From positions 1-64,000 of IMG/VR virus record IMGVR_UViG_3300032216_001431: 64,000 bases of DNA, one strand, 5' to 3'. Below, in pieces: positions 3,547-50,765 of this stretch; position 1 is the first letter of the stretch, and each line of letters starts with the position of its first letter. The position numbers were made by a program, and so were the translations under genes. The stretch comes from a virus. Its lineage: Duplodnaviria; Caudoviricetes. The notes under the pieces are model-generated. The model was not told the DNA's origin. It saw only the letters and a program-made list of their open reading frames with translations, and ran no database searches.

Positions 3547-4581
3547 ATGAAGATACTTTTATCCGGCGGTTTTTGCCACATGGAACTTGATAATGGTTGG
3601 GGCAAAGCGGCTAGGGGAATGTATTATGAACTTAAGAAAACGGGTTTTGATATTCAACTTGTTTCACGATTCGGTGAATATTTTCAAGATTACGATGAAG
3701 ACATAGATATAGAAATTTCATACAAATACCCAAAACATTTTAAATTTTTTAGTGAAACTAGTTATAAGATTGCGATAACTCCTTGGGATTCTTCTGATGT
3801 ACCACAAATTATAAAACAGGAGTTTGCTCAAGCAGATGAGATTTGGGGTTCCTCCTTTTGGACTTCTAGCATTTATGAAAAAAATAATGTTCATAAAAAT
3901 ATTTTTACTTATCGTCACGGCTTAAGTGATTATTACACTCCAAAGAAACATGTTCATAATAATGGCAAACCGTTCACATTTTTGCATATCGGTGAACCTT
4001 CTGCACGAAAAGGAGGTAAATTGGTTGTTGATTGTTTCATTGAATTGTTTGGTAATGATCCCAATTATGAGTTAATTTTGAAATGTTATCAGAATTCAGA
4101 GATTATGGTGTCTGATCCTGATTTTGGTGTGATCTCAGGCCCACCGTATGATTTTTATCAAAACATTAAATATGTTCCTGATGCGGTATCGCTAGAAGAA
4201 TTGATACTTTTTTTCAATCTTGCTGATGTTTTTGTTTATCCAAGTTATGGTGAAGGCTTTGGTTACACCCCATTAGAAGCAATTTGTTTAGGTGTTCCAA
4301 CCATATGTGTCCCTGATTGGGCTGATTATGCAAAATACATAACAGTACCTCTTAAATCTAACCTTGAAGATTCTCCTGATTGGTTCCATCCCGGCAAAGT
4401 ATTCATGCCAGATAAGAACCACTTGAAAGAATTGATGCTTAAAGCAAGAGATGAACATGAAAAATGGGCAGATGTTGCTTTTAAAAACGCTTCCTTGGCC
4501 TATGAAGAATTCAAATGGGAAACTACGACAAAGCCTGCTGTAGAAAGATTAAAAAATATTCAAATTTCTAGAAATTTATAA
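3547..4581 (+). CDS. glycosyltransferase, GT-B fold (GT4 / Glycos_transf_1)
   Basis: RKG motif and ADVFVYPSYGEGFGYTPLEA (E-x7-E) signature. Confidence 0.9.
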   Translation: MKILLSGGFCHMELDNGWGKAARGMYYELKKTGFDIQLVSRFGEYFQDYDEDIDIEISYKYPKHFKFFSETSYKIAITPWDSSDVPQIIKQEFAQADEIWGSSFWTSSIYEKNNVHKNIFTYRHGLSDYYTPKKHVHNNGKPFTFLHIGEPSARKGGKLVVDCFIELFGNDPNYELILKCYQNSEIMVSDPDFGVISGPPYDFYQNIKYVPDAVSLEELILFFNLADVFVYPSYGEGFGYTPLEAICLGVPTICVPDWADYAKYITVPLKSNLEDSPDWFHPGKVFMPDKNHLKELMLKARDEHEKWADVAFKNASLAYEEFKWETTTKPAVERLKNIQISRNL

Positions 4582-11010: not shown

Positions 11011-11049
11011 ATTTTGATTTGACAAAATTTAATGTTAACATTTAAACAA

Positions 11050-12669
11050 ATGGAAATTAACAAAGTTTCATGGAACAATAGCGAAAAAAAAGTTAATCTA
11101 GCATTTCCTATCGCTAAAGTCAACAAGGAAAAACGCACTGTTTCGGGGTTTGCGACCCTTGATAATATTGATCGTCATGGAGACATTGTTACACCAGAAG
11201 CCAGCGAGAAGGCTTTCACTCGTTTTCGCGGTAATTTGAGAGAGATGCACCAACCTATTGCTGTAGGGAAGGTGCTTTCTTTTTCTCCAAAAGAATTTTT
11301 AGATCCACAAACTAATAAATCTTATCAAGGTGTTTATGTAAATGCTTATATTTCAAAAGGCGCACAAGATACATGGGAAAAAGTACTTGATGGAACATTG
11401 ACAGGTTTTTCAATTGGTGGAAACATTGTTGAATCATCATATGAACCCGGCGACTCAAAAGAAGATACAAGAATAATTAAAGATTATGAACTTATGGAAC
11501 TTAGCCTAGTTGATAATCCTGCCAACCCACTTGCTAATATTTTTTCTATTCAAAAGAATGTTGATGGAATGGTACTTAAAGGGATGGCGGCAGAAACTGA
11601 AATTGAAAATGTTTTTTGGTGTAATACTGATTTAGTTGCTACAACTTCAACTGCATCTTTCTCTGATTGTATGTCATGTGGTGATTCCATGACTAATGTT
11701 GGTTGGGTTGAAAAATCAGATACAGAAAAAAATGTTTCTATCAAAAAGGCTATAGATACTTATTTTGCTAAAGATGATGCTCCCGGTCCAACACATGAGG
11801 CAACTACTCAAGATGGTGACGCAACTGTAACTAGTCAAAACACAATTAATCTTTATCCAGATCAAGATGCTATCAAAAAGGGTGGTTCTGTTGGCAGTTA
11901 TGTCAAATGGAATTCTAGCGGTGGAACTGCTTATGGTAAAATTATTAGAGTTATTAAAAGTGGTTCTTATAAAGTCCCCGGTACGTCCTTTGAGATTACG
12001 GGAACAAAAGAAGATCCTGCAGCAGCAGTAAGGCTGTATAAAAAAACTGCAAAAGGTTTTGTGGCAACTGAAACAATGGTTGGTCACAAATTAAGCACTC
12101 TGACCCAAGTATCGGTCAAGATTACAAAGAGTGCCGATGAAAAACTTCTACGCAAAGGAGGGAATAAAGAAATGGCAGACGAAATAAACGAAACTTTCTC
12201 AGAAGAAGTTGTCGAAAATGTACCAGAAATTGAAGTTGTTGAAGAGTTTGCTGCTGTGGATTCTGAGGTAGTTGAAGGCGATGTTGAAAAAGCCGCAACC
12301 GTTTCCGAACTTCCAGTAGATGAACTAGACTTTGCAAAGATGGTTGACACTCTCAAGGCAGAAATCACAGAAACAATTACAAAGAATTATGCTGATGCTA
12401 CTAATGCGGCTCAGGACGTTCAGAAATCAGTTGACGATGTTAACTCACACATTCAGAAATCTATCGATGACTTTGGTTCAAAAGTTACCGAACTTTCAAA
12501 CAATGTTGCAGAAGTTACCAAGATGGTTAGCGATTTACAGAAGCGTGTAGACGCATACGAAAGTACAACAGCAATAAAGAAGTCTGGCGATGTGCAAACT
12601 TCACCAGATGAAAATAAAATAACAAAGAGCATTTGGCAAGGGCACTTCCTCGGTGTAAATAACATTTGA
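11050..12669 (+). CDS. prohead (HK97-type) maturation protease fused to a Tudor-like insert and scaffold
   Basis: VSGFAT..DRHGD, REMH, GFSIGG, ELSLVDNPAN; start MEINK (11050) preferred because TGTTAACAT at 11033-11041 covers the ORF-track start 11032. Confidence 0.88.
   Translation: MEINKVSWNNSEKKVNLAFPIAKVNKEKRTVSGFATLDNIDRHGDIVTPEASEKAFTRFRGNLREMHQPIAVGKVLSFSPKEFLDPQTNKSYQGVYVNAYISKGAQDTWEKVLDGTLTGFSIGGNIVESSYEPGDSKEDTRIIKDYELMELSLVDNPANPLANIFSIQKNVDGMVLKGMAAETEIENVFWCNTDLVATTSTASFSDCMSCGDSMTNVGWVEKSDTEKNVSIKKAIDTYFAKDDAPGPTHEATTQDGDATVTSQNTINLYPDQDAIKKGGSVGSYVKWNSSGGTAYGKIIRVIKSGSYKVPGTSFEITGTKEDPAAAVRLYKKTAKGFVATETMVGHKLSTLTQVSVKITKSADEKLLRKGGNKEMADEINETFSEEVVENVPEIEVVEEFAAVDSEVVEGDVEKAATVSELPVDELDFAKMVDTLKAEITETITKNYADATNAAQDVQKSVDDVNSHIQKSIDDFGSKVTELSNNVAEVTKMVSDLQKRVDAYESTTAIKKSGDVQTSPDENKITKSIWQGHFLGVNNI
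12172..12669 (+). CDS. nested in-frame scaffolding protein (MADEINETF...)
   Basis: AAGGAGGG SD at ~12155-12162 before in-frame ATG; acidic then coiled-coil sequence. Confidence 0.6.
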   Translation: MADEINETFSEEVVENVPEIEVVEEFAAVDSEVVEGDVEKAATVSELPVDELDFAKMVDTLKAEITETITKNYADATNAAQDVQKSVDDVNSHIQKSIDDFGSKVTELSNNVAEVTKMVSDLQKRVDAYESTTAIKKSGDVQTSPDENKITKSIWQGHFLGVNNI

Positions 12670-18314: not shown

Positions 18315-18595
18315 ATCTTGTTGCATTAGAAAGCGAGGTTTTCTTATTGGGAAAATGGATAAACTACGACGAACTGGAATCAACCATGTGCGTCGAAGAG
18401 TTGATTGTAACCGTTAACGCAATAAGAGAAAAGGAAAGTCGGGATCGAAAATTCTCTGCTGCTCTGCAAGGGATTGATCTTGATGAGGAAGAAGAATTAA
18501 ATGATATTACAGATTTGAAGGGACTTTCTGCAGCACAAGAGGGATTCGGTATTGGAATGGGACTTGGCTACATGGAGATTGATGAAACCTCATGA
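17976..18595 (+). CDS. tail assembly chaperone gpGT-like fusion via -1 frameshift at CCCAAAC (18272-18278)
   Basis: In-phase C-CCA-AAC slippery heptamer; the -1 frame is open from there into ORF 18347..18595. Confidence 0.8.
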
Positions 18596-21500
18596 CCCAA
18601 AATATTAACCTTAACATAGTTGGTACCGCTAACTTTCTTCCAGCCATTTCGGAAATAAAGAAACTTAAAACTGCTATGTCCGATTTGCAGAATACGCAAA
18701 TTGGTAAAGGTTTAAATAATCAATTAAATGCTCAACTTAAAAGTTATGAGCAAGATTTTCTTAAAGTAATTCAAACAACAAAAGGTTTTAATGTTGAGCA
18801 AGTTAAACTTGCTGATGCTACTGATCATTTAACAACTAAATTGTCTAGAGGTCAATTTAGTTTAGGTGAATATTATTCAATGTTTAAGCGTAGCAGAACG
18901 GGTGTTGTTGAGGAACTTAATCAAATTGCTCAGGCTCAAGCAAAAGTTGCTAAATCATTTGTTATTCCATCTCAAAAAGGTGGGTATGCTCAAGTAATCA
19001 CTGATATGTCTGGTGTTGCAGACAAGATGAAGACTGCTGAGATTTATCAAAAAGCATTAAATACGGCTATGATGGATGGCACTACTAAACTTATTAATTT
19101 TGGTAAGAATACTCAGTGGGCCGGTCGTCAGTTAACAGTTGGTCTTACAGTTCCGCTTATGGCAGCAGGTGGAGCAATGGCAGCCATGTTCTATCAAGTA
19201 GATCAAAATTTGCGTAAAATGCAATCCGTTTATGGTGTTGGTGGTAAGGCCGGTGGAGCATTTTCATCAATTCTTCCTTCACAACAAGAAATTGCTAGTA
19301 TTCGTAGTCAAGTTGTTCAACTTAGTCAGGAAATGGCTAGAACGTATGGACAAACTGCACAGGAAACTGCTGGTGTAGCCGCAGACCTTGCTGCGGCGGG
19401 ATACACAGGAAATCAACTACTTGGCCTTACAAAAACAGTAACTAAGGCTATGGTTCTTGGTGAATCTGATAGACAAACAGCAATGAAGGCAACAATTGCT
19501 CTTCAAAGTGCTTATAAATTAAGTACAGATGAGACTGCAACTGCACTTAATTTCTTTAGCGCAGCGCAGGCTGCTACTAGCACAACTATGAGGGATCTGA
19601 TTGATGCTATTCCTCGCGTTGGTCCAGTTGTAAGAAACCTTGGTGGTTCATATAAAGATACTGTAGCAATGCTTGTAGCCATGAAAGAGGGTGGTGTAGC
19701 AGCAGGTGAAGGTGCTAACGCACTTAAGAACTCTCTTGGTAGATTAATTTCTCCTACTAAAACAGCGGTAGATTCACTTAAAGTTTTTGGCGTAGATATT
19801 CTTGGAATTGTTAATAAAAATTCTGGCAATGTTGTGGGTATGATTGAATCATTGCAGCAAGCACTTTCTACATTGACGCCATTGGCTAGGCAGCAAGCGA
19901 TTACTGATATTTTTGGTAAATTCCAAATGTCTCGTATGACAGCGTTATTGGATAACTTTAATCAATCTGGCACACAGTCTGCAAAAGTTATGCAGATGAT
20001 GGGTCTTAGTGCTAAGCAACTTTCTGACATTGCAGCAAATCAGACAAAAACTCTTCAAGAATCAACTTCTGGTCAATTTAAAATTGCAATTGAAACATTA
20101 AAAGCAGATTTAATGCCAATTGGAGAAACATTCCTTCAAGTTGCTACAGTTCTTGTTAAAGCAGTTGATTTTATTGTTAAAGGATTTGACAAATTAGGAC
20201 CAATAAAATATGTTTTAGGTGGAATTTTAGGTGGAGCAGCAGTGCTTGGCCCCGTCATCATGTTCTCTGGTCTTATGGCTAACTTAGTTGGTCAAGTATT
20301 TAAACTTGTACAATTATTTAGAATGTTTAGAGGCGGCTTTGCAGAAAGCGGCGGTTGGACATCTCCAATTAAATCATTAACTAATGCATTTGCTGGTTTA
20401 AGTAATTATTTCCAAGAAGTAGATAAGGCTATGGTTGCATCTGAAGCATTATCTAAAGATCTTAATGCAACAATGATGAAACAAGAAGAATCATTAAATA
20501 TTCTTACTGCTGCTTTAACTAGATACACAAATGCTGTTGCGCGTGCTGCTGAGATAAATGGTGTTAGTGGTGGAGGAATTGTTCCTCCACCTAATGGGCC
20601 GTCTGGTGGTCCTGTGAGGCCGGGAGGGATGCCATTTGCGCCCACTGGTGGACCAACTTCACCAATAGGAATTATTGGTAATGCTACTAGGCCAACTCCA
20701 CCAGTACTAAACAATATGAGTGTAAATAAATCAGGGGCAGGGGAAGATGTAGGAAGAACTGGATTTGTTTATGAGACTCCTTCTGGAAATAAGGTTAAAG
20801 GTAATGAATTTATCCATCTTGTTACAGATAAAGCAACTCAAAATGTTTTAGGGAATCTTGCAGTTGTTCCCGGTTATTTTGATGTTCCGAATTCACCGGG
20901 TGTGGCATTAAATAGAAACTTAAAAGAAAACCCCATGCCAATTGTTCCACCATCTATGATGCAGGATGAAGAAATTGTTAAAAGAGTTTTGCGGGATCTT
21001 AAATTGTCCACGGCTGCTTGGTCTGTAGAAGCACATGCTCCAGCGATGAGCCTTGAAAATATTACAAGTTCTGAATCAAGTAAAATTGCTATGCTCCGCG
21101 CTATGCAACAGATGGGTCCATCTGTTCTACCACAATTAACGGCGTTGCATCAAAATGGGGCCACTGGTGAAGATGTCCATAATTTCTTTGCTAATGCTAT
21201 GGGTCCAGAGCAATGGCAGGCTATGCGTAAGCAAGCAGTTCAAGATGTTTTGGCTGCGTATGAGGCAGCCCAAAAATCTGTTCATGAACAACTTCTTTCA
21301 AGTGGCAGAGGGGCGCAAATTGGAACTACAGCAGGTCTACAATCTGTTACCTCACAGTTCGGTTCAGAGTTATTAAAAGAATATAAAGTAATTATTGATA
21401 ATATGGATCAACAAATAGTTACTGCATTAAGTGTTGAATCTGAAAAAACAGGACAAGGACTTTCTACTGCAATTAGAGAGGGTATGCGTAGAAATGCTGC

Positions 21501-24500
21501 TCCAGCATTAATTAACCTTGGTGCTACTGCTGCTACTCATGGAGATATGGTTGTCAAGGAATTTGAGAATTTGATTCATATTGCTCAACAGGCAATGGCA
21601 AAGATTGCAAGTCAAGTTGGATCTACTGCAGTTGAAATTTCTGCAATGTCTGGAGTTGGAACTGTTCCTGTTATTAATCAGGCTGCAGCAAGAGTTTCTA
21701 GAATTGAACAGATTGCAAAGGGGGGCTTAGGTGCAGTTAAATTAGCAACTGGTGGTAAAGTTCAAGGACCGGGTGGACCTAGAGATGATGTTATTCCCGC
21801 CATGCTTTCAGATGGTGAATATGTTGTCAATGCTAATGCTGTAGGACATTATGGGACTGGTTTCTTAGATGCCGTTAATAGTAAAAAATTAGCAGGTGGT
21901 GGTCCAGCAGGGTCGTCCCGCCTTGCAGGTATTATGGATAGCCTGTTTGGGCGAGAAAAAATGCAATCTTCTTCTCAAATACAAAACTATTTAACTTCTC
22001 CAAATAGTGCATATGCTGGGCACAACATTCAAGACTTCTTTGCCTCACGCAATAATGCAAAAAATGTGGATTTGAAGCATATTGAAGATTTGATTTCTAA
22101 TCATCAGGCTCTGGGCACGCTTGAAGAACAACAATTGATGAAAGCATTGGAAGAACATGCTTCAGGTGATTGGGGGAATAAGGGTCCATTGGCAGCCCTT
22201 GATCCTAGAATTGTTGATGCTGGTCGTGCATCATTAAATACTAGATTAAGCCAAATGCCCGGTGATACTGTAAGGCTTTATCGAGCAATTAGAACTACTC
22301 CAGAAACTGGTAAAACTGCTCCCGGTCATTATGGTTATATTCCTGCAGGTCAAGCAATTGAAGCACATCAGCCATACACTTCATATTCTTCCAATATTGA
22401 AAAGGCAATGACTTTTGTAGGAAATGATCAAATTGCTAATGCAAGAATTATTGAAGTTGACGTTCCTAAAAGTGCTATTGTCGGAATTCAAAATGCTAAC
22501 TATACTGGTAAACCGGGAGAGGGAGAATTTGTTGTTAGAACTTCTGATATTCCCGGCGGTTCAAGGTATGTAACTTTCACTGGTCTTTCTACTAAGAGAA
22601 AAAATTCTGATGATCCTCTGCTCAAATTCCTTGGTAAACCGGGTCCAGAATCTAAGGGTATGTTGCTTACAGATATTGCTAGAAGGTACACTCAGATGCC
22701 TTCACCAGAAGCATCTTCTAAAGTACCGGGTTTTTGGGATGAAAGTCAAAGGCAGTATGCTGAAACTCGCGCAGGTAATTTTAATTTCGGTCCTAGATAC
22801 AGCCCAGAACATCAATTAGAATTTTTTGGTATTACCCCAGAAGAAGTTCAAATTGCTCGCCAGCACTTGGAAGAAAAATATGGGATGCAAGTTAAAGAAC
22901 TTGCAAAACAGAAGAATAAAAAAATTATTGGTAAGAATTATGAAGATCAAACTCTTTTAAGATTGGCTTCTGATAAAGAGTTTATTCCTGCTGAATCCCC
23001 CGGTACTATGTCCACTATTTGGTCACCTAATTATATTAATCGTGCTAAGGGTGGTGGTGTTGGTCAATTCCATCATAATAGATTTTACAAATATCATGAT
23101 CGCAAATTTAAATATGAAAAAGGTGGGGAGGTTTTTGCCCACGCAGTAAACCCTATTCATTCGGGAAATTTAAAAGCATATTTACCAATAGGCTTTAAAA
23201 CAACAGAAGAAATTAATCAAGCATTAAACAATAGTAATATTGAAAACGGCGCAAATGTTCAAGAACTTATAGATCAAATATCTAAAGACAATTCAACTGA
23301 TGAAATGATTTCTCAGTTAAAAAATGCTGGATATACCGATACCGCCGCAAAAAAATATGCCAAAAAAATAAAAAATCATACTTTAGAGCAATTGAAAAAA
23401 TTTGAAGGTAAAAAAATAAATGATAGTACTTTATATAATTTAGTAGAACAATCAAAAGAAGTAGAATCAATAAAAGAAAAATTAATTAATGACGAAAATT
23501 GGATAAAATCAACTGCTGAAACAAGAATTAGTCCAAGTCTCAGAAAACTAGGTGAGGCTGGAGCAACGGTAACACTTCCAGAAGAAACAGTTAAATTAAA
23601 CGATAGATTATTAACCAGTAAAATAATTAATTCTGGCAACATGAGTTATGGCTATGATCATAAAAAAGAACAAGTTTATCGTGAATTTAATTTCAATAGC
23701 AATGGTGAAACATATAAAGCAAGGCAAGCACTTAAAGAAATTCCAAAAGCATTTACAATACCAAATAATCCAAATAGAACAAGCATAAGCGAATTAACGG
23801 CTGAAGAAGTACAGCATTTATTCACTGGAGAAAATATAAAGGGCCGAGGGTTTAGGTATTACAATTCTAATAATCGCTTTGTCGCCAGTAGCAAGGGGAT
23901 TAGGGGTATCCTTTCTAATTTAGAAGAAAACCTTCTAATTAAAACTCTAATCCGTCCACGCGCTAATGGCGGTTTTGTCAGACTTGCTGATGGTGGTATC
24001 CCAGCAATGGTTTCAAATGGTGAGTATTTCTTTGGACCAGATACCGTTAAGCATTATGGTAAAGGTTTTATGGATAATCTTAATGCTGGTAAATTTGCTA
24101 TGGGTGGTAAGATTGTTGGCCCCGGCGGTCCTAAAGACGATTTAATTCCAATGACATTACCAGAGCATTCTTATATTATTAATGCTGCTGCTACTCAAAA
24201 AATTGGTATACCAACTCTTGACGCAATTAATTCTAAGAGATTTAGTAAAGGCGGCATTCTTGGTTTTCCGACAGGAGGCGAAGCAACTGCTGAAGAAGAG
24301 CAAAGTCTTATGCAAGTTAGAGCAAGGTTGGCAAGAAAAGCGTTGAAAGCACAACAACGTGCTGAAGAAGAGAATGAAGTAAATAGGCAAGAGCATGAGG
24401 CGTTTGAGGCAAGAAAACGGGCGGCTAAAGCACAATTGCAAGCCGCAGAACAAGAATTAAAGAATGTAAGAAATAATCCCAATTCTACAGGAAAAATTAT

Positions 24501-27500
24501 AGAAGAATCACGAAGAGCAGTTCGTGAAGCCAATCAAGTGCTTCAACCTATGAGGCAAGCAGGAAGACCAATTCGTGAAGCCTATAATGCTTCTCAAGCA
24601 ACACTTCAGCGTGCGACAGAAAGATTCAATGTTCAAAGTGCTGGTATTCCCATGCATATGATTGACCCTGATGCTCCTAGAGAAAGAGGATCACTTGGTC
24701 AAAGGATCAGAGAAAGGTACAGGCCCACTCAAGGTCAGCCGCGACGAGGTTTTAGTTCAGGTATGGGTTCTATGATGGGTGGGACCGCTTTGCAGATGGC
24801 AGGATCTATGGCTGGTGGTGCTTTAGAAGCAAATGCTGGTGGTGCTACTATGGCAAGTTCAGCCTTATCCGGTGCTGGAACTGGTGCAATGATGGGTTCA
24901 ATGCTTGGCCCAGAGGGGATGCTTGCGGGTGCTGCCATCGGTGGAATTATCGGTGGAATTATGGGCCACATGGAAGAAGAACAAAGAAACCTTACAAAGG
25001 CTATTAGTGAAGCCCACCAAAAGAATATGGGATTAGTTTCAAGTATGAGTACGTCTTCTGACATATTAGCGCAACTTGGAATTAAGGTTAAATCTATTTC
25101 TGATATTAAACTTGGAGATAATGCTAAGCAGGCAGAGGCTTATTCTAGTGCAATTAATCAAGTTGCTGATGCGATGGCAAACGGTTCAGAAGCAACAAAA
25201 TCTATGATTAATTATATTAAGACTGCTACTTCTGAAGATCAAAGGAAAGCATTGGGTCAACAATTCTCAGGCGTACTTGCAGCAGGGGGAAGTGTTGAGC
25301 AAGCAACTGTTACTGCAGGAGGGGCTGCAAAGGCAGCCGGATTAAGTGGTTTGATGTCTTCAATTGCAATTAATCAATTGAAATCAGAGGCTCAAAAGGC
25401 TGCAGCATCAGGAAAATCACTTCAACTGTTTGGTGCAGAAAAGCAATTTGCTGGCGCTCAAGCGATGTTAAATAATAATGGTGGCCTTGATTTGAGTAAG
25501 TTATCAAAACAAAACTTTTCTTATTCTACTCCCAATACCGCTTCTCTTGGTGGTAGGTATGGAAGTATGGGCATGAAAAAAGTAAATGCTAATCTGGCGG
25601 GTACCTTGGGTTATTCTGGTCAAACTTTACCTGAAGGATTTATGCTTTCTTCATTAAGAGAAATTAAAGGTAAAACTGCTGAAGATATTAATGCAAAAGG
25701 TCTTGGCGGCGCTGCGGCTCTTGGAAGCAATGATGCAAATATTGCAGCAGTAGCAAAACTTTCTAAAATTACAGAAAACATGAAGCCAGAAGAAGTTGAA
25801 TCAAAAATTAACGCTTACTTGTTAAATTTAAAGAAAATACCTGATGAAGCATTTAAAGATGCTCAGAATTTACAAGATGCTTATGATCAAATTAATATTG
25901 GATTTACTAAACCAATGGAAGATGCAATTGTTAATATGAGTTCTTCTGATTTTAAACAATATATTAATGAATTTTCTACTGGAATGGGTACTGCTTCTGA
26001 TGTTATGAAAGTTGTTGCTGATAAGGTTGCTTCTGAACTTAGTCCTGAAATGCAAGCCTTGGAAGGCTCACTTGGTAACTCAACGGCTGCGTTGAGCAGG
26101 TTCTTGACAGCAGTTAATGCAATTTCTGGTATTAAATTTGATAGCGCACAAGCGCAAGAACGTGCTGCTGCTGCGATTACGGATAATCCTTCATTAGCAG
26201 CAGCAGCAGAAAAACAAACGGCCTTTGAAAAACAAGCCTCATCTATTGGCGATAAAGAATCAAAAAATATTGATGGTAGCAATAGGGTAGGCTCTTTACA
26301 AACTGCTTCTAAAAAATCTTCTGATAAGTTCGTAGCAGATCAAAAGGCTGCTCAAAAAGCATATCAACAGGAACAAGAAAGTATTCAGAATACTATTAAA
26401 GCAAAAAGTAAATATATTGATTCTATTCGTAAAGAAATGGATGCTCGTCAAAAACTTTATGATAAGAAACAACAAGGAATTGAACAAGATCTTACTTTAC
26501 AGAATTTGCAGAATGATGTTTATAGGGCGCGTACGACGGGAAGTTTGCTTGATCAGGCCGCTGCTCAAAGTGCTTATAATGCTGAATTAAATAAGCAGGC
26601 TGACCTTAAGGCTAAGCAGGCTGCTGATGAAAAAGATCAATCTAAAATTGATAAAACTGATACGCAAATTAGTACTTTGCAAGATACGCTTGATAAAATT
26701 TCTAAAAATTATGATAAAGCACAGCAAAAAGCACAAGACACTCAGGATGCAATTCAGGTTAGTTATGGAAAACAAATAGAACAAGCAAAAAAACTTGGTG
26801 ATACAACTGGCGCACAACAAGCAGCATGGTCAGATGGTTGGCAGAAACTTGTGACTGCTGCTGAGCAAGGTAAGGGTGCAACTTCTCAAGAAGTTATTGA
26901 TCTTATTGATGGGCTTACTAAATCAAGTGGTGTTGCTAAAACACAAATTATACAAGATTTTACAGAAATGCAAACAAATTTCAATAAAACTGTTGGTAAA
27001 GATGGACTTATTTTTAATGCTAACGGTACAATGACAAAACTTGGAATTCCAAATGGACAAATTTATGCTGATGAAAATGGTAATCTAACTTGGAAAGAGG
27101 CTGGTGGCAAGCCAAGGTTCGTGGACCTTGGTGGAGGTGTTGTTGTTTCAAACGCAAGTAAGCCAAAGCCACAACGAATTGGATCAGGCCCACTTGCAAA
27201 TAAACCATTACCAGCACCAGCAGCAGAAGGTGGTTATATTTCTGGACCGGGAACTGCAACTTCTGATTCCATTCCCGCTAGACTTTCAAATGGAGAGTAT
27301 GTAGTTCGTGCAAAAGCAGTAAATCATTATGGTTCAGGTATGATGGATGCTATTAATGAAAGAAGGTTTGCAGAAGGCGGTCTTGTCGGTCCAGATAATG
27401 TAAGTAGTATGCAAGATGGTAGTGGCAAACTTCCTAAAATTAACTTTGGTTATTCTGTTCCTTTTGCACGCGGCGGCGCTGTGTCGCCTAATGAAGGTGG

Positions 27501-29625
27501 GCCGGGTCCAAGGTATACCCCACCCGATCCACCGTCCACGTCCAGTACCGGACCTAGTGAAAATTCTGGAGGTAACGGTTCTCCTTCTGCACCTAGACCA
27601 CTTTGGTATCCTCCAGTAGGTGCAGATACTGTTATTAATGGTAGATATTATTTGAAGAGTGGAAGGTTACATGCAGAGTCATGGAATACGGGTGCTGCAG
27701 GTAGTGGTGTGAATGATATTCCAGCGTCGCTTGGAACTTATTTTTATTCCCTACTTGATGGTATTGTTTCTTATGTTGGAAAAGCACCATATTCTCCGTT
27801 TTATCTTCCCGGCTATGTAAAAGTTAAAAATAATATAGGTGGAGAGATTAGATATGCTCATATGAATCCAATGGTTTCAAGTGGGCAAAAAGTAAGGGCA
27901 GGGGACGCTCTTGGTGTGGCGGCAATACAGTCAAGTCCCGTACTAGGAAGGACAATGACTGCCCCTCATCTACATTTTGCTTGGCATGATATGAATAGTC
28001 TTATTCAAAGGGGTGCGGGTGGTAGAGTTCCTTGGCTAGATAAAAATGGAAAGTCAGTTTTTGGGGAAGGTTCCCCTAGTGAGAATGCTGGAAATGGTCA
28101 AGGTGCAGTAGGTTCAATTAATTATTCACAAGTTCAATTGGTTAAATTGCTTCAAAAAGCAGGTTTTCATGATGTAGGTCTTAGGATGGCGTGGGCAATT
28201 GCTATGCGTGAATCTGGGGGTAACGCATCTGCACGTTCACCTAAGAAAGGCACTTATCCTAATGGTACTTATGATGCTGGGCTTTATCAATTAAATTCTT
28301 CTAATTATAAAGGTTGGAAGATAGATACTAAAAAACTTTATGACGGAATGTATCAGGCAAAGTTTGTTTATGATAAAACAAAAAATATGTCTAAGGATAC
28401 ATTGGCGTGGGGTCTTAATCCAGATGGAACAACTAATGCTGTTTATTATGGTCATTGGTCAAAAGAAATGATTAGTAATTATATAACTAAACCGTTCAAA
28501 AAATATTGGGAAATGTTCCCAGCAGTTCTTAATATGGCTGGAGGTGCAATACCACCTACTTCTAACCCTAAGAATCCTAATTCTTTAAGTTCTTCTTCAG
28601 GTACAGGTTCAAGTGGATCGGGTACAGGTTCAAGTGCAACAAGTGCATCTTTTAGCAATAAACCAAAGCCACCTCCAGAAGAAATAGTAGATTATCATTT
28701 CTCAGTTCCAGAAACTTCCGGTGGAACTAATTCTAACGCTAATTATAATGCGTTAATTAAAAGAACACAGTTGAAAACTCCTGCTCCTTGGTATAAGAAA
28801 ATGGCAAATGAGGCTTCTTCTTATGTAGGAAAAGTTGATTATTCTGGTCCTGCTGGAAGCAGTACAACTCATCGACGTAAGGGCAAGACTGCAGATTCTT
28901 CTGCTGTTCCCGGCGATTCAGATACTTATCATTATTTAAAATCAAAGTACAGTGGTAAAAAAGATTCTCATAAAAATAAAATCTATATTGATGGCGTCGG
29001 TGGTTGGAATGCTCCAGAGTTTACTTGGAGAATGTTAAGTAAGTACGGTAAGATGAAAAAGTTTGCTGGTCAGGATGCTCAGAGTTCAATGGGAAGCCCT
29101 GTTAAGAAGGGTAAGGAGAGGCTTGGAGATTTAATTTTTAAGGATGAGGGCAATTACAACCGTGTTGGAATATATGTAGGAGATGGCAAATATGTGTTTG
29201 CAGATTCAGTATTATCAGGTACTGTAAAACGTCCCTCTAAAAATTATTTTAGAGCGAGAAGATTCTTTGCTGATGGTGGTCCAGTGTCTGGACCGGGTGG
29301 TGCTAAAGATGATAAGATTCCGGCAATGCTTTCTAATGGAGAGTATGTAATTAAAGCAGATTCCGTAACTTCAAAAACAAAACCATTTTTAGATATGGTT
29401 AATGCTGGATCATTTAATCCTAAGTTTAATTCTCCAACGTCAAGAATTTCAACTCCAACTGGGTTGGCTGATACTGCAAGTGCGGGTGCGTCAACTAACA
29501 ATGTAGAGTATAATTTAACTGTAACAGTAGAAAAAACTAATGCTTCTCCAGAAGACATTGCAAATGTTGTTATTCAAACTCTTAAGAGAAAAGAAAAAAC
29601 TAATAAAACACATAGGATTCTTTAA
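18592..29625 (+). CDS. tape measure protein, multi-domain (TMP core, ART-like, glycine zipper, M23, SLT, degenerate NlpC/P60)
   Basis: Follows chaperones; N-terminal TP901-like helical core (GKNTQWAGRQLTVGLTVP, EGANALK); motifs listed under findings. Confidence 0.93.
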   Translation: MTQNINLNIVGTANFLPAISEIKKLKTAMSDLQNTQIGKGLNNQLNAQLKSYEQDFLKVIQTTKGFNVEQVKLADATDHLTTKLSRGQFSLGEYYSMFKRSRTGVVEELNQIAQAQAKVAKSFVIPSQKGGYAQVITDMSGVADKMKTAEIYQKALNTAMMDGTTKLINFGKNTQWAGRQLTVGLTVPLMAAGGAMAAMFYQVDQNLRKMQSVYGVGGKAGGAFSSILPSQQEIASIRSQVVQLSQEMARTYGQTAQETAGVAADLAAAGYTGNQLLGLTKTVTKAMVLGESDRQTAMKATIALQSAYKLSTDETATALNFFSAAQAATSTTMRDLIDAIPRVGPVVRNLGGSYKDTVAMLVAMKEGGVAAGEGANALKNSLGRLISPTKTAVDSLKVFGVDILGIVNKNSGNVVGMIESLQQALSTLTPLARQQAITDIFGKFQMSRMTALLDNFNQSGTQSAKVMQMMGLSAKQLSDIAANQTKTLQESTSGQFKIAIETLKADLMPIGETFLQVATVLVKAVDFIVKGFDKLGPIKYVLGGILGGAAVLGPVIMFSGLMANLVGQVFKLVQLFRMFRGGFAESGGWTSPIKSLTNAFAGLSNYFQEVDKAMVASEALSKDLNATMMKQEESLNILTAALTRYTNAVARAAEINGVSGGGIVPPPNGPSGGPVRPGGMPFAPTGGPTSPIGIIGNATRPTPPVLNNMSVNKSGAGEDVGRTGFVYETPSGNKVKGNEFIHLVTDKATQNVLGNLAVVPGYFDVPNSPGVALNRNLKENPMPIVPPSMMQDEEIVKRVLRDLKLSTAAWSVEAHAPAMSLENITSSESSKIAMLRAMQQMGPSVLPQLTALHQNGATGEDVHNFFANAMGPEQWQAMRKQAVQDVLAAYEAAQKSVHEQLLSSGRGAQIGTTAGLQSVTSQFGSELLKEYKVIIDNMDQQIVTALSVESEKTGQGLSTAIREGMRRNAAPALINLGATAATHGDMVVKEFENLIHIAQQAMAKIASQVGSTAVEISAMSGVGTVPVINQAAARVSRIEQIAKGGLGAVKLATGGKVQGPGGPRDDVIPAMLSDGEYVVNANAVGHYGTGFLDAVNSKKLAGGGPAGSSRLAGIMDSLFGREKMQSSSQIQNYLTSPNSAYAGHNIQDFFASRNNAKNVDLKHIEDLISNHQALGTLEEQQLMKALEEHASGDWGNKGPLAALDPRIVDAGRASLNTRLSQMPGDTVRLYRAIRTTPETGKTAPGHYGYIPAGQAIEAHQPYTSYSSNIEKAMTFVGNDQIANARIIEVDVPKSAIVGIQNANYTGKPGEGEFVVRTSDIPGGSRYVTFTGLSTKRKNSDDPLLKFLGKPGPESKGMLLTDIARRYTQMPSPEASSKVPGFWDESQRQYAETRAGNFNFGPRYSPEHQLEFFGITPEEVQIARQHLEEKYGMQVKELAKQKNKKIIGKNYEDQTLLRLASDKEFIPAESPGTMSTIWSPNYINRAKGGGVGQFHHNRFYKYHDRKFKYEKGGEVFAHAVNPIHSGNLKAYLPIGFKTTEEINQALNNSNIENGANVQELIDQISKDNSTDEMISQLKNAGYTDTAAKKYAKKIKNHTLEQLKKFEGKKINDSTLYNLVEQSKEVESIKEKLINDENWIKSTAETRISPSLRKLGEAGATVTLPEETVKLNDRLLTSKIINSGNMSYGYDHKKEQVYREFNFNSNGETYKARQALKEIPKAFTIPNNPNRTSISELTAEEVQHLFTGENIKGRGFRYYNSNNRFVASSKGIRGILSNLEENLLIKTLIRPRANGGFVRLADGGIPAMVSNGEYFFGPDTVKHYGKGFMDNLNAGKFAMGGKIVGPGGPKDDLIPMTLPEHSYIINAAATQKIGIPTLDAINSKRFSKGGILGFPTGGEATAEEEQSLMQVRARLARKALKAQQRAEEENEVNRQEHEAFEARKRAAKAQLQAAEQELKNVRNNPNSTGKIIEESRRAVREANQVLQPMRQAGRPIREAYNASQATLQRATERFNVQSAGIPMHMIDPDAPRERGSLGQRIRERYRPTQGQPRRGFSSGMGSMMGGTALQMAGSMAGGALEANAGGATMASSALSGAGTGAMMGSMLGPEGMLAGAAIGGIIGGIMGHMEEEQRNLTKAISEAHQKNMGLVSSMSTSSDILAQLGIKVKSISDIKLGDNAKQAEAYSSAINQVADAMANGSEATKSMINYIKTATSEDQRKALGQQFSGVLAAGGSVEQATVTAGGAAKAAGLSGLMSSIAINQLKSEAQKAAASGKSLQLFGAEKQFAGAQAMLNNNGGLDLSKLSKQNFSYSTPNTASLGGRYGSMGMKKVNANLAGTLGYSGQTLPEGFMLSSLREIKGKTAEDINAKGLGGAAALGSNDANIAAVAKLSKITENMKPEEVESKINAYLLNLKKIPDEAFKDAQNLQDAYDQINIGFTKPMEDAIVNMSSSDFKQYINEFSTGMGTASDVMKVVADKVASELSPEMQALEGSLGNSTAALSRFLTAVNAISGIKFDSAQAQERAAAAITDNPSLAAAAEKQTAFEKQASSIGDKESKNIDGSNRVGSLQTASKKSSDKFVADQKAAQKAYQQEQESIQNTIKAKSKYIDSIRKEMDARQKLYDKKQQGIEQDLTLQNLQNDVYRARTTGSLLDQAAAQSAYNAELNKQADLKAKQAADEKDQSKIDKTDTQISTLQDTLDKISKNYDKAQQKAQDTQDAIQVSYGKQIEQAKKLGDTTGAQQAAWSDGWQKLVTAAEQGKGATSQEVIDLIDGLTKSSGVAKTQIIQDFTEMQTNFNKTVGKDGLIFNANGTMTKLGIPNGQIYADENGNLTWKEAGGKPRFVDLGGGVVVSNASKPKPQRIGSGPLANKPLPAPAAEGGYISGPGTATSDSIPARLSNGEYVVRAKAVNHYGSGMMDAINERRFAEGGLVGPDNVSSMQDGSGKLPKINFGYSVPFARGGAVSPNEGGPGPRYTPPDPPSTSSTGPSENSGGNGSPSAPRPLWYPPVGADTVINGRYYLKSGRLHAESWNTGAAGSGVNDIPASLGTYFYSLLDGIVSYVGKAPYSPFYLPGYVKVKNNIGGEIRYAHMNPMVSSGQKVRAGDALGVAAIQSSPVLGRTMTAPHLHFAWHDMNSLIQRGAGGRVPWLDKNGKSVFGEGSPSENAGNGQGAVGSINYSQVQLVKLLQKAGFHDVGLRMAWAIAMRESGGNASARSPKKGTYPNGTYDAGLYQLNSSNYKGWKIDTKKLYDGMYQAKFVYDKTKNMSKDTLAWGLNPDGTTNAVYYGHWSKEMISNYITKPFKKYWEMFPAVLNMAGGAIPPTSNPKNPNSLSSSSGTGSSGSGTGSSATSASFSNKPKPPPEEIVDYHFSVPETSGGTNSNANYNALIKRTQLKTPAPWYKKMANEASSYVGKVDYSGPAGSSTTHRRKGKTADSSAVPGDSDTYHYLKSKYSGKKDSHKNKIYIDGVGGWNAPEFTWRMLSKYGKMKKFAGQDAQSSMGSPVKKGKERLGDLIFKDEGNYNRVGIYVGDGKYVFADSVLSGTVKRPSKNYFRARRFFADGGPVSGPGGAKDDKIPAMLSNGEYVIKADSVTSKTKPFLDMVNAGSFNPKFNSPTSRISTPTGLADTASAGASTNNVEYNLTVTVEKTNASPEDIANVVIQTLKRKEKTNKTHRIL
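21742..29412 (+). repeat. dispersed protein repeat AxGG.V.GPG...D.IPA.LS.GEY.. in the TMP (21742-21888, 23983-24093 partial, 24094-24240, 27220-27366, 29266-29412)
   Basis: Five copies seen in the translation. Confidence 0.9.
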
Positions 29626-49179: not shown

Positions 49180-49359
49180 ATGTCGGGAATTGATGATGTA
49201 GAAGAAGTAACAATATCTCAAACTATTAATCAAATAGTTATTTCCGCAGTTGGTACTCAGGGACCGCCGGGAACATTTATTAATAATATTGATGGTGGTA
49301 CTCCTTCATCAATATATGGAGGAAATATCATTATAGATTCAGGTGGGGTAGTTCAGTGA
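49180..49359 (+). CDS. 59-aa small tail protein (MSGIDDVEEV...VGTQGPPG...IDGG)
   Basis: Hand-translated, below ORF-track cutoff; GTGA overlap with next gene; resembles the N-terminal part of 44564..44986. Confidence 0.7.
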   Translation: MSGIDDVEEVTISQTINQIVISAVGTQGPPGTFINNIDGGTPSSIYGGNIIIDSGGVVQ

Positions 49360-50765
49360 CAGTTCAAATTCAATTTAGGCGTGGTACTGCTGCTCAGTGG
49401 ACTAGTGTTAATCCATTACTCTCTGAGGGAGAAATGGGTTTAGAGTTAGATACTGGAAAGTTTAAGGTTGGTAATGGTTCTACATATTGGAATTCTTTGC
49501 CTTATTCTTCTGGTACTACTGGCGCTACTGGACCGCAGGGTGCAACTGGTTCTCAAGGTGCGACGGGTGCAACTGGAGTGCAGGGACCATCTGGAGCAAT
49601 TTCTGTATCTTCCCCTATTGTAAATTCTGGAACATCAACTTCAGCATCTCTTTCTTTTAATGGATCTGTTGCTTCTGTAGCATATGCAACTAATTCAGGT
49701 TCTTCTACTTATTCTTCAAGTGCTGGCGCTGCCCCAATTCCCGCAAGTGTTTCCTATTCTGCATCTAGCGGATTAGCAAGTAATTCAACAAATTTTGCGG
49801 GACAAGCACAATCATATTATGCTCCGATTAGTTCACCTAATCTTACAGGAACCCCATTAGCCCCTACTGCTGCATCTGCTACAAACACTACACAGATCGC
49901 AACTACGGCCTTTGTTCGGGGAGAGATTACAAATCTTGTTAATTCTGCCCCAACAACTTTAGATACGTTAAATGAATTGGCGGCGGCTTTAGGAAATGAT
50001 CCTAATTTTGCTACAACAACTGCTTCTACAATTGGACTTAAAGCACCTATTGCTAATCCAACTTTTACCGGAACTGTGAATCTTGGTTCTAATGTGGCAA
50101 CTGGATCAGTTTCTAGTGCTTTAAATTCAGCATCTTTGGCTGGGCAGCCGGGATCATATTATTATCCTGCATCTTCAATTACCGCTGCTTCTGTAGCCTA
50201 TTCTACAAATGCTGGTAATGCTACAACTTTGGGTGGACAATCTTCAGCATACTATTATCCTTCCGCTTCAATTACTACTGCATCAGTTGCTTATTCAACA
50301 AATGCCGGTAATTCAGCATCAACATCTCAAACTAATTTCAATGCTTTAACAATTTCTGGTTCAAGCGTAGCAACTCAAAATTATGTTAATAATAAGTTTT
50401 TCTATGAAACAATTCCTTTTACGGTAACAGGATCTGTGTCTACTGCTAGAGCATGGGATTACAGGTTTTATAATGATACAGGCGGGACAAGATCAATTAA
50501 TGGAGTTAGGGCAAGTTTAGGTTCCGCTCCTTCAGGATCTGCTATGAACATAGATATTAGAAAGAATGGTATTACTGGAGCAAATAGTATTTTTACAGCA
50601 TCTGGATTTTCTATTCTTTCCGGTTCGATTACTTCTGGATTAATATCTTCTGGTTTTAACAGTGGATCAAGTGTGGCTTCTGGTGATTATCTGACTGTGG
50701 CGGTAACTCAAGTTGGTTCGGCAAGTGCCGGGTCAGATTTAGTCGTTCAAGTTATGTGGAGTTAA
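49356..50765 (+). CDS. tail fibre with Mtd-N/hyaluronidase-like N-terminus, collagen stretch and adaptor domain (copy 2)
   Basis: IQFRRGTAAQW...GEMGLELDT.KFKVG.G; LDTLNELAAALG.DPNF. Confidence 0.85.
   Translation: MTVQIQFRRGTAAQWTSVNPLLSEGEMGLELDTGKFKVGNGSTYWNSLPYSSGTTGATGPQGATGSQGATGATGVQGPSGAISVSSPIVNSGTSTSASLSFNGSVASVAYATNSGSSTYSSSAGAAPIPASVSYSASSGLASNSTNFAGQAQSYYAPISSPNLTGTPLAPTAASATNTTQIATTAFVRGEITNLVNSAPTTLDTLNELAAALGNDPNFATTTASTIGLKAPIANPTFTGTVNLGSNVATGSVSSALNSASLAGQPGSYYYPASSITAASVAYSTNAGNATTLGGQSSAYYYPSASITTASVAYSTNAGNSASTSQTNFNALTISGSSVATQNYVNNKFFYETIPFTVTGSVSTARAWDYRFYNDTGGTRSINGVRASLGSAPSGSAMNIDIRKNGITGANSIFTASGFSILSGSITSGLISSGFNSGSSVASGDYLTVAVTQVGSASAGSDLVVQVMWS

Follow-up and report, generated by a model that had tools for sequence, protein, structure and literature searches.

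Phage particles are already known to carry ADP-ribosyltransferases (ARTs), as T4 Alt and as fusions to MuF head proteins, and the enzymes known from within tape measure proteins (TMPs) are exclusively cell-wall hydrolases. T4 Alt, which like ModA and ModB is a phage-encoded R-S-ExE ART, is carried in the virion and modifies host proteins as infection begins (T4 annotation); it is a separate, head-packaged protein that enters with the DNA. In the MuF–VIP2 fusions of the Microbacterium phages Percival, Goodman and Johann (PMC7302621), an R-S-E type ART is fused into a virion protein, so that the enzyme is expected in the particle. The TMP of mycobacteriophage TM4, as cited in PMC13277306, contains peptidoglycan hydrolase motifs. 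Here we describe a 64,000-nucleotide stretch of DNA (the window), which forms the first 64 kb of the 95.5-kb IMG/VR virus record IMGVR_UViG_3300032216_001431, a record estimated to be 76% complete. The 3,677-amino-acid (aa) TMP encoded in the window very probably contains an ART-fold domain with intact R-S-ExE motifs.

Fold and chemistry are known, as is the delivery of ARTs by virions, but the carrier, the position and the sequence family are new. The TMP domain resembles the MuF–ART fusions in being joined to a virion protein; however, those ARTs sit at the C terminus of a head protein and match PF03496, whereas the TMP ART is internal, has no Pfam match and has a helical partner subdomain of its own. 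It is comparable to T4 Alt as an ExE ART, with carriage in the virion predicted here, and differs from it in being embedded in a tail protein. It shares with the TM4 hydrolase motifs, and with the M23 and SLT domains of its own TMP, the arrangement of an in-frame globular enzyme that is presumed to be expelled. For those enzymes the substrate is the cell wall, on the outer side of the membrane, whereas an ART needs NAD+ and must therefore reach the cytoplasm.

The original prediction, made from the sequence of the window, placed a cholera-toxin-like ART domain in the TMP on the basis of an R, S, ExE order of short motifs, and each motif lies where it was reported. The second arginine of VRLYRAI (R1231) is encoded at 22282–22284, within R-L-Y-R (aa 1228–1231; 22273–22284, + strand), and is the candidate NAD-binding arginine on strand β1, as indicated by conservation and by the structure model. 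SYSS is encoded at 22381–22392, and its S-Y-S (aa 1264–1266; 22381–22389, + strand) provides S1264 and S1266 as the counterpart of the S-T-S motif, both serines being invariant and consistent with the model. Next comes an ARTT-like loop with an invariant N-Y (aa 1303–1304), followed by E-G-E (aa 1310–1312; 22519–22527), which supplies E1310 and E1312 and opens the next strand (loop and motif together 22498–22527, + strand).

To describe conservation we used an alignment, termed A2, of 12 core copies from 9 TMPs, spanning 225 positions, with the other copies 29–80% identical to that in the window. Twenty-five of the 225 positions are invariant, including R-L-x-R, both serines of S-x-S, the loop N-Y and both glutamates of E-x-E. 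In R-L-Y-R, the two arginines and the leucine are the same in all 12 copies and the third position is Y or W; the middle residue of S-x-S is Y, M or F, not T; and E-x-E reads EQE, EKE, ERE or EDE in relatives, EQEV being the cholera-toxin wording of this motif. By our own arithmetic, the chance that five residues named beforehand would all fall in the invariant 11% is about 1e-5. Moreover, one relative (P0007, 4,971 aa) contains three tandem paralogous copies, about 29–37% identical to the window copy, with the full motif set in each; three tandem units of ART and helical subdomain, with R, SxS and ExE intact in every one, occupy aa 1559–2903 of this protein (L004:5675–9715). That three divergent paralogues within one protein all keep the motif set argues for selection on catalysis.

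Structure prediction points to the same fold. Modelling of the whole 384-aa module with AF2 gave a pLDDT of 65 and weaker fold matches, and this model was replaced by one of the core only, built using A2, with a pLDDT of 87.5 and a pTM of 0.87. In the core model a split β-sandwich, which in the ART fold bears the NAD cleft, is laid out in the canonical order of R-S-E ARTs: N-terminal helices, the arginine strand, a strand ending in S-x-S and followed by a helix, two strands, the ARTT-like loop, a strand opened by E-x-E and a final strand. In model numbering, the arginine motif lies in strand 102–109, S-x-S ends strand 138–142 ahead of helix 145–150, the loop spans 177–187 and the E-x-E strand 188–192. 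The secondary structure that had been guessed from the letters agrees with DSSP on the AF2 models (arginine in a strand, S-x-S at a strand end and then the NIEKAM helix, the RIIEVDVP strand, and E-x-E opening a strand after the loop). The motif and strand elements that define ARTC enzymes are present: an aromatic-Arg motif in strand β1, S-x-S at a strand end before a helix, and E-x-E after a loop with invariant N-Y.

When the core model was compared with 48,161 representative chains by VIA-align, ART-fold proteins filled nearly all of the 50 rows listed. The foremost matches (score, aligned residues and root-mean-square deviation (rmsd) in brackets) were C3bot2 (6.6, 151, 4.0 Å), Vis (6.3, 150, 4.6 Å), TreX (6.2, 93, 2.8 Å), C3stau2 (6.0, 153, 4.1 Å), HopU1 (5.9, 143, 3.8 Å) and C2-I (5.8, 146, 3.9 Å), with Certhrax, ART2.2, VIP2, Tre1, diphtheria toxin, PARPs, SpvB, ExoS, LT, pertussis S1 and ParT lower in the same list. 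A VIA search of the PDB likewise returned almost only ARTs, and Foldseek, one of the checks that had been proposed for the domain, gave cholera toxin as its best PDB match (E 2.9e-3, prob 0.95), in line with a predicted ART fold. Among predicted viral structures (BFVD) there were eight matches at E ≤ 1e-3, the best at 3.3e-7; the BFVD matches include 'phage head morphogenesis domain-containing' and 'minor capsid' proteins (E 3.5e-6 to 6e-3), and several of the weaker ones are annotated phage ARTs. CNFy also appeared among the fold-search matches. Judged from where the aligned ranges start (cholera toxin (CT) A1, model 101 to chain 1; LT, 104 to 4; pertussis S1, 99 to 1), R1231 (model 107) would correspond to R7 of CT, R7 of LT and R9 of pertussis S1, and the end of the C3bot1 range would place E1312 within one residue of C3 E214. 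Taken together, invariant catalytic motifs, a confident model and top lists made up almost entirely of ARTs uphold the earlier assignment of an R-S-ExE, cholera-toxin-like ART-fold domain within the TMP.

Two groups of known toxins set the domain in context. The C3 exoenzymes, Vis and the catalytic domains of VIP2, iota, C2-I and Certhrax (ARTC, C3-like group) are 8–15% identical to it at an rmsd of about 4 Å and show no sequence match; the C3-like toxins are secreted bacterial toxins, whereas the TMP ART is part of a phage tail protein. TreX, TreTu and Tre1 are antibacterial ARTs delivered by type VI secretion systems as C-terminal tips of Rhs- or VgrG-linked proteins, and are accompanied by immunity genes. 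No pairing of the Tre1–Tri1 type was found for the TMP ART: neither an ARH (PF03747) nor a Macro (PF01661) gene was detected in the 95-kb record at its estimated 76% completeness.

By sequence, the ART core is, as far as seen, a previously unnamed and rare family within the ART fold that is confined to giant TMPs. A phmmer search with the 384-aa module against 1.84 billion cluster representatives returned only eight proteins, seven of them 3,411–4,971 aa long, and a few further matches, of 2,752–3,999 aa, came from a region-restricted search at 90% clustering. Relatives of 907 and 1,799 aa begin at or beside a contig end and are therefore probably fragments. Wherever DNA could be recovered, the relative occupies the place of a TMP, with tail tube and chaperone-like genes ahead of it, and those with whole N termini carry PhageMin_Tail. 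A profile search found no stand-alone relatives of 210–751 aa and, at 752–2,145 aa, only an already known fragment; blastn and tblastn searches of 50,697 phage records (INPHARED) found no cultured phage with the module; and a scan of viral contigs for it found only two near-identical loci. Full-text literature searches retrieved descriptions of MuF–ART fusions and of TMP wall hydrolases, and no TMP-embedded ART.

None of the families ADPrib_exo_Tox (PF03496), ART (PF01129), Enterotoxin_a, Pertussis_S1, DRAT and Mod_ADP_RT matched at the gathering score, a six-frame search of the record with PF03496 found nothing, and PHROGs returned for the module only a family of unknown function (E 0.015). 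Language-model neighbours, which serve as leads only, were clusters of DUF4765 (0.90), ADPrib_exo_Tox, DRAT and Mod_ADP_RT (weak, 0.83). Identity with DUF4765, which is domain D4 of CNFy, was rejected, as its Pfam model (PF15962) gave no match and it has R/E/H (PMC7883292) against R-S-ExE here. NF-E2/Nrf2 rows, the only ones that sequence and profile searches of the PDB gave, fell on the helical subdomain at E ≥ 0.05 and were discarded as chance matches.

The ART core is one part of a larger module. As first given, the module spans TMP aa 1100–1483 (384 aa; 21889–23040, + strand) as an in-frame translation inside the 3,677-aa open reading frame (ORF). It is a bounded unit containing an ART, as had been proposed, but it resolves into two parts rather than one: the ART-fold catalytic core, with N-terminal helices and the split β-sandwich (aa 1125–1349; 21964–22638, + strand), and a conserved helical subdomain (aa 1350–1483; 22639–23040, + strand) delimited by a hidden Markov model (HMM). 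This subdomain of about 130 aa directly follows all 15 ART core copies in 13 proteins (14 complete and one cut at a contig end). Its pLDDT is only 45–79 in the full-module model, and searches of Pfam and of known folds gave no family match and no convincing fold match.

The motifs named as borders, LAGGG starting at 21889 and RAKGG at 23041–23055 (+ strand), proved genuine and recurrent. LA[GSF]GG closes a repeat of about 51 aa, the first copy of which (REP1, aa 1054–1104; 21751–21903, + strand) ends in LAGGG and forms the upstream border of the module, with the window ART core starting 20 aa after it; downstream, linkers of the R-x-x-GG or FAxGG type follow the module in most relatives. The repeat has the pattern GG-x3-GPGG-x2-DD-x-IPAMLS-x-GEYV...FxDxxN...FxxGG. 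An HMM built from the five window copies (the helical subdomain having its own HMM) locates the remaining copies at aa 1793–1840 (23968–24111), aa 1838–1889 (24103–24258), aa 2880–2930 (27229–27381) and, near the C terminus, aa 3562–3613 (29275–29430), and the window copies are 61–72% identical as DNA. The repeat occurs in every related TMP, always once near the C terminus; it may act as an anchor or a joint, or be a site of processing. In every TMP whose N terminus is on the contig, the ART and helical unit lies between the first and second repeat copies. By contrast, a homologous 2,300-aa TMP (L016:4162–11061), with 42% identity over its N-terminal part, retains three repeats without the ART or helical unit; it is a natural control that lacks the module, and identifies the module as optional cargo and not as part of the ruler. 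Internal promoter or terminator signals that might let the module be expressed separately fell short of what shuffled sequence would give. That the module is bounded by repeats, can be absent and is sometimes present in triplicate suggests that giant TMPs have a general system for swapping cargo.

The gene that holds the module (18592–29625, + strand) is a single uninterrupted ORF, identified as a TMP gene by its family matches: PhageMin_Tail (PF10145) at aa 246–442 (E 6.6e-32), TIGR01760 tape_meas_TP901 (E 1.4e-30) and PHROG TMP families down to 7e-108. The family domain, the very long helical protein and the place after a tail tube gene (Phage_TTP_17) and two small chaperone-like ORFs are together those of a TP901-type TMP. 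Its C terminus has M23 and SLT_3 domains above the cut-off and a weak NlpC/P60 match. The protein is strongly hydrophobic only at aa 181–201 and 514–573 and has a glycine zipper at aa 2092–2131.

Our favoured explanation, which we hold to be somewhat more probable than all others combined, is that TMP aa 1125–1349 are a catalytically intact R-S-ExE mono-ART that, with its helical partner, constitutes an optional inter-repeat cargo module, is expelled with the TMP and modifies one or more host proteins, most likely on arginine. Its parts differ in strength: the ART-fold domain is likely to be enzymatically active, and its delivery to the cytoplasm with the ejected TMP is plausible, although we would stop just short of expecting it. 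The phage would then probably bring a host-modifying enzyme, already made, into the cell along with the contents of its tail. In the sequence of events that we propose, the tail tube would hold the TMP until its expulsion at infection, the wall hydrolases at the C terminus of the TMP would act first, and its hydrophobic and glycine-zipper segments would engage the membrane; the ART module would enter the cytoplasm, where NAD is present, before the DNA or together with it and would ADP-ribosylate host protein(s) for takeover or counter-defence. Arginine is the likely acceptor because of the ExE motif: arginine-specific ARTs combine a strictly kept ExE with an invariant aromatic in the ARTT-like loop, and DNA-targeting ARTs carry QxE. 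Precedents are provided by T4 Alt, by the MuF–VIP2 ARTs that actinophages carry in the virion (PMC7302621), by TMP ejection and effectors of contractile injection systems (CIS) derived from TMPs (PMC13277306), and by the ART cargo of type VI secretion systems (TreX and Tre1, both among the fold matches).

Several observations weigh against this explanation. Pfam hmmscan (E ≤ 10) of the module and nine homologous modules found no ART family, NCBIfam gave no ART match to the module, and neither did searches of the PDB by phmmer and two profiles. The parallel with T4 Alt that had been drawn at the outset holds by analogy, as a virion-carried R-S-ExE ART, but a link in sequence was not found: hhalign of the family profile A2 against the single T4 Alt sequence gave a probability of 0.2%, a single-sequence target being a weak test. 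The middle residue of S-T-S is replaced in all copies, and a folded 25-kDa domain, in triplicate in one relative, is hard to fit into the lumen of a tail tube. ART-like folds can also be inactive, as CNFy D4/DUF4765, for which NAD binding was not detected, illustrates (PMC7883292). Finally, the entry of the module-bearing part of the TMP into the cytoplasm is a step that we infer, for a phage and a host that are both uncultured.

Doubt about that step gives some room to an active ART that works instead in the producing cell late in infection, on host or phage proteins (possibly the TMP, tail proteins or chaperones), and is only a passenger in the virion. The TMP is made in NAD-rich cytoplasm, the 95-kb record has no ARH or Macro gene that could act as an 'immunity' gene, and the topology after ejection is one that we infer. 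We nevertheless consider late action unlikely, because a late enzyme needs no fusion to a structural protein, the family is found only in TMPs, with no stand-alone form in either length range searched, and both T4 Alt and the MuF–ART fusions are precedents for packaging in the virion for early action. An enzyme that uses NAD+ with an acceptor other than protein arginine, either as an NAD+ glycohydrolase on the NAD pool or as an ART on DNA, RNA or a small molecule, appears marginally less probable again. Its best fold matches (C3, Vis, HopU1, C2-I, Certhrax, VIP2, ART2.2 and TreX) modify proteins, and its ExE and ARTT-like loop aromatic conform to the arginine pattern rather than the QxE of DNA-targeting members.

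The inactive folds mentioned above raise the further prospect of a non-catalytic ART-like domain that serves the TMP as a structural spacer or binding domain, as in CNFy D4; the nearest language-model neighbours are the DUF4765 clusters, and CNFy is in the fold lists. Yet the DUF4765 residues are not R-S-ExE and its Pfam model does not match, and the catalytic positions of the TMP domain are invariant at about 30% identity, including in the three paralogues, a pattern not easily accounted for unless catalysis is under selection; we regard a purely structural role as improbable. Least credible of all is a chance occurrence of R, S and ExE in a low-information segment. Such short motifs are frequent in a protein of 3,677 aa and no sequence database names the region, but the residues named beforehand are among the 25 of 225 that are invariant, the model is confident and ARTs take up nearly the whole VIA-align listing. 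Conservation, the core model and the fold searches (VIA-align, BFVD and PDB) together refute this possibility.

Beyond the catalytic mono-ART cargo that we favour, a bolder and rather unlikely proposal is that the giant TMP is a polyprotein-like vehicle for cytoplasmic effectors, with cargo held between the 51-aa repeats and x-x-GG linkers, threaded unfolded, refolding in the cytoplasm, possibly cleaved at the linkers, and disarming transcription or defence in the host ahead of the DNA. If so, three divergent ARTs in tandem would let the relatives that have them act on several targets, and there would be a siphophage protein-injection route absent from the literature searched, together with direct evidence of internal TMP segments entering the cytoplasm. 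An NAD-dependent enzyme is of no use in a TMP unless the segment that holds it reaches the cytoplasm, which makes the module a built-in reporter of the fate of the TMP after ejection. The domain also adds a sequence-orphan family to the ARTs, and what it targets may reveal the means of takeover or disarming that these large freshwater or environmental siphophages use on their hosts.

The surrounding genome is of the siphovirus type, with genes for a portal, a prohead protease/scaffold, a capsid protein and a tail tube protein, two small ORFs, the 3,677-aa ORF and large distal tail genes, and the record encodes its own DnaB, primase, DnaE, RecA and class II ribonucleotide reductase. The actinobacterial host that had been assumed is unsupported: the window has a GC content of about 40%, and when the phage DnaE was used as a host probe on 185,579 species genomes, the match obtained, to a Vibrio, was only 30% and uninformative. 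GC across the ART is about 0.40 and equals that of the remainder of the TMP gene. Right after the module (23100–23999), GC falls to 0.29–0.33 in a Lys/Asn-rich TMP segment with no family match, which may be a second, more recently acquired cargo. Towards the C terminus, the NlpC/P60 match (aa 3494–3554; 29071–29256) scores 17.7 bits, under the Pfam cut-off of 23, and may be a degenerate third wall-hydrolase domain.

Three further genes in the window drew attention by their domains. The prohead protease (Peptidase_S78) ORF at 11032–12669 has a Hva1_TUDOR domain (E 3e-5, just above the cut-off) ahead of a coiled-coil, scaffold-like tail. A fibre-like protein encoded at 49356–50765 combines an N-terminal Mtd_N (major tropism determinant, E 6e-14) with a collagen repeat, which hints that it is the target of a diversity-generating retroelement. 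Adjoining the class II ribonucleotide reductase gene, a glycosyltransferase (3547–4581) matches GT4-conflict (PF20706, E 1.7e-6) and may be a DNA- or surface-modifying counter-defence gene.

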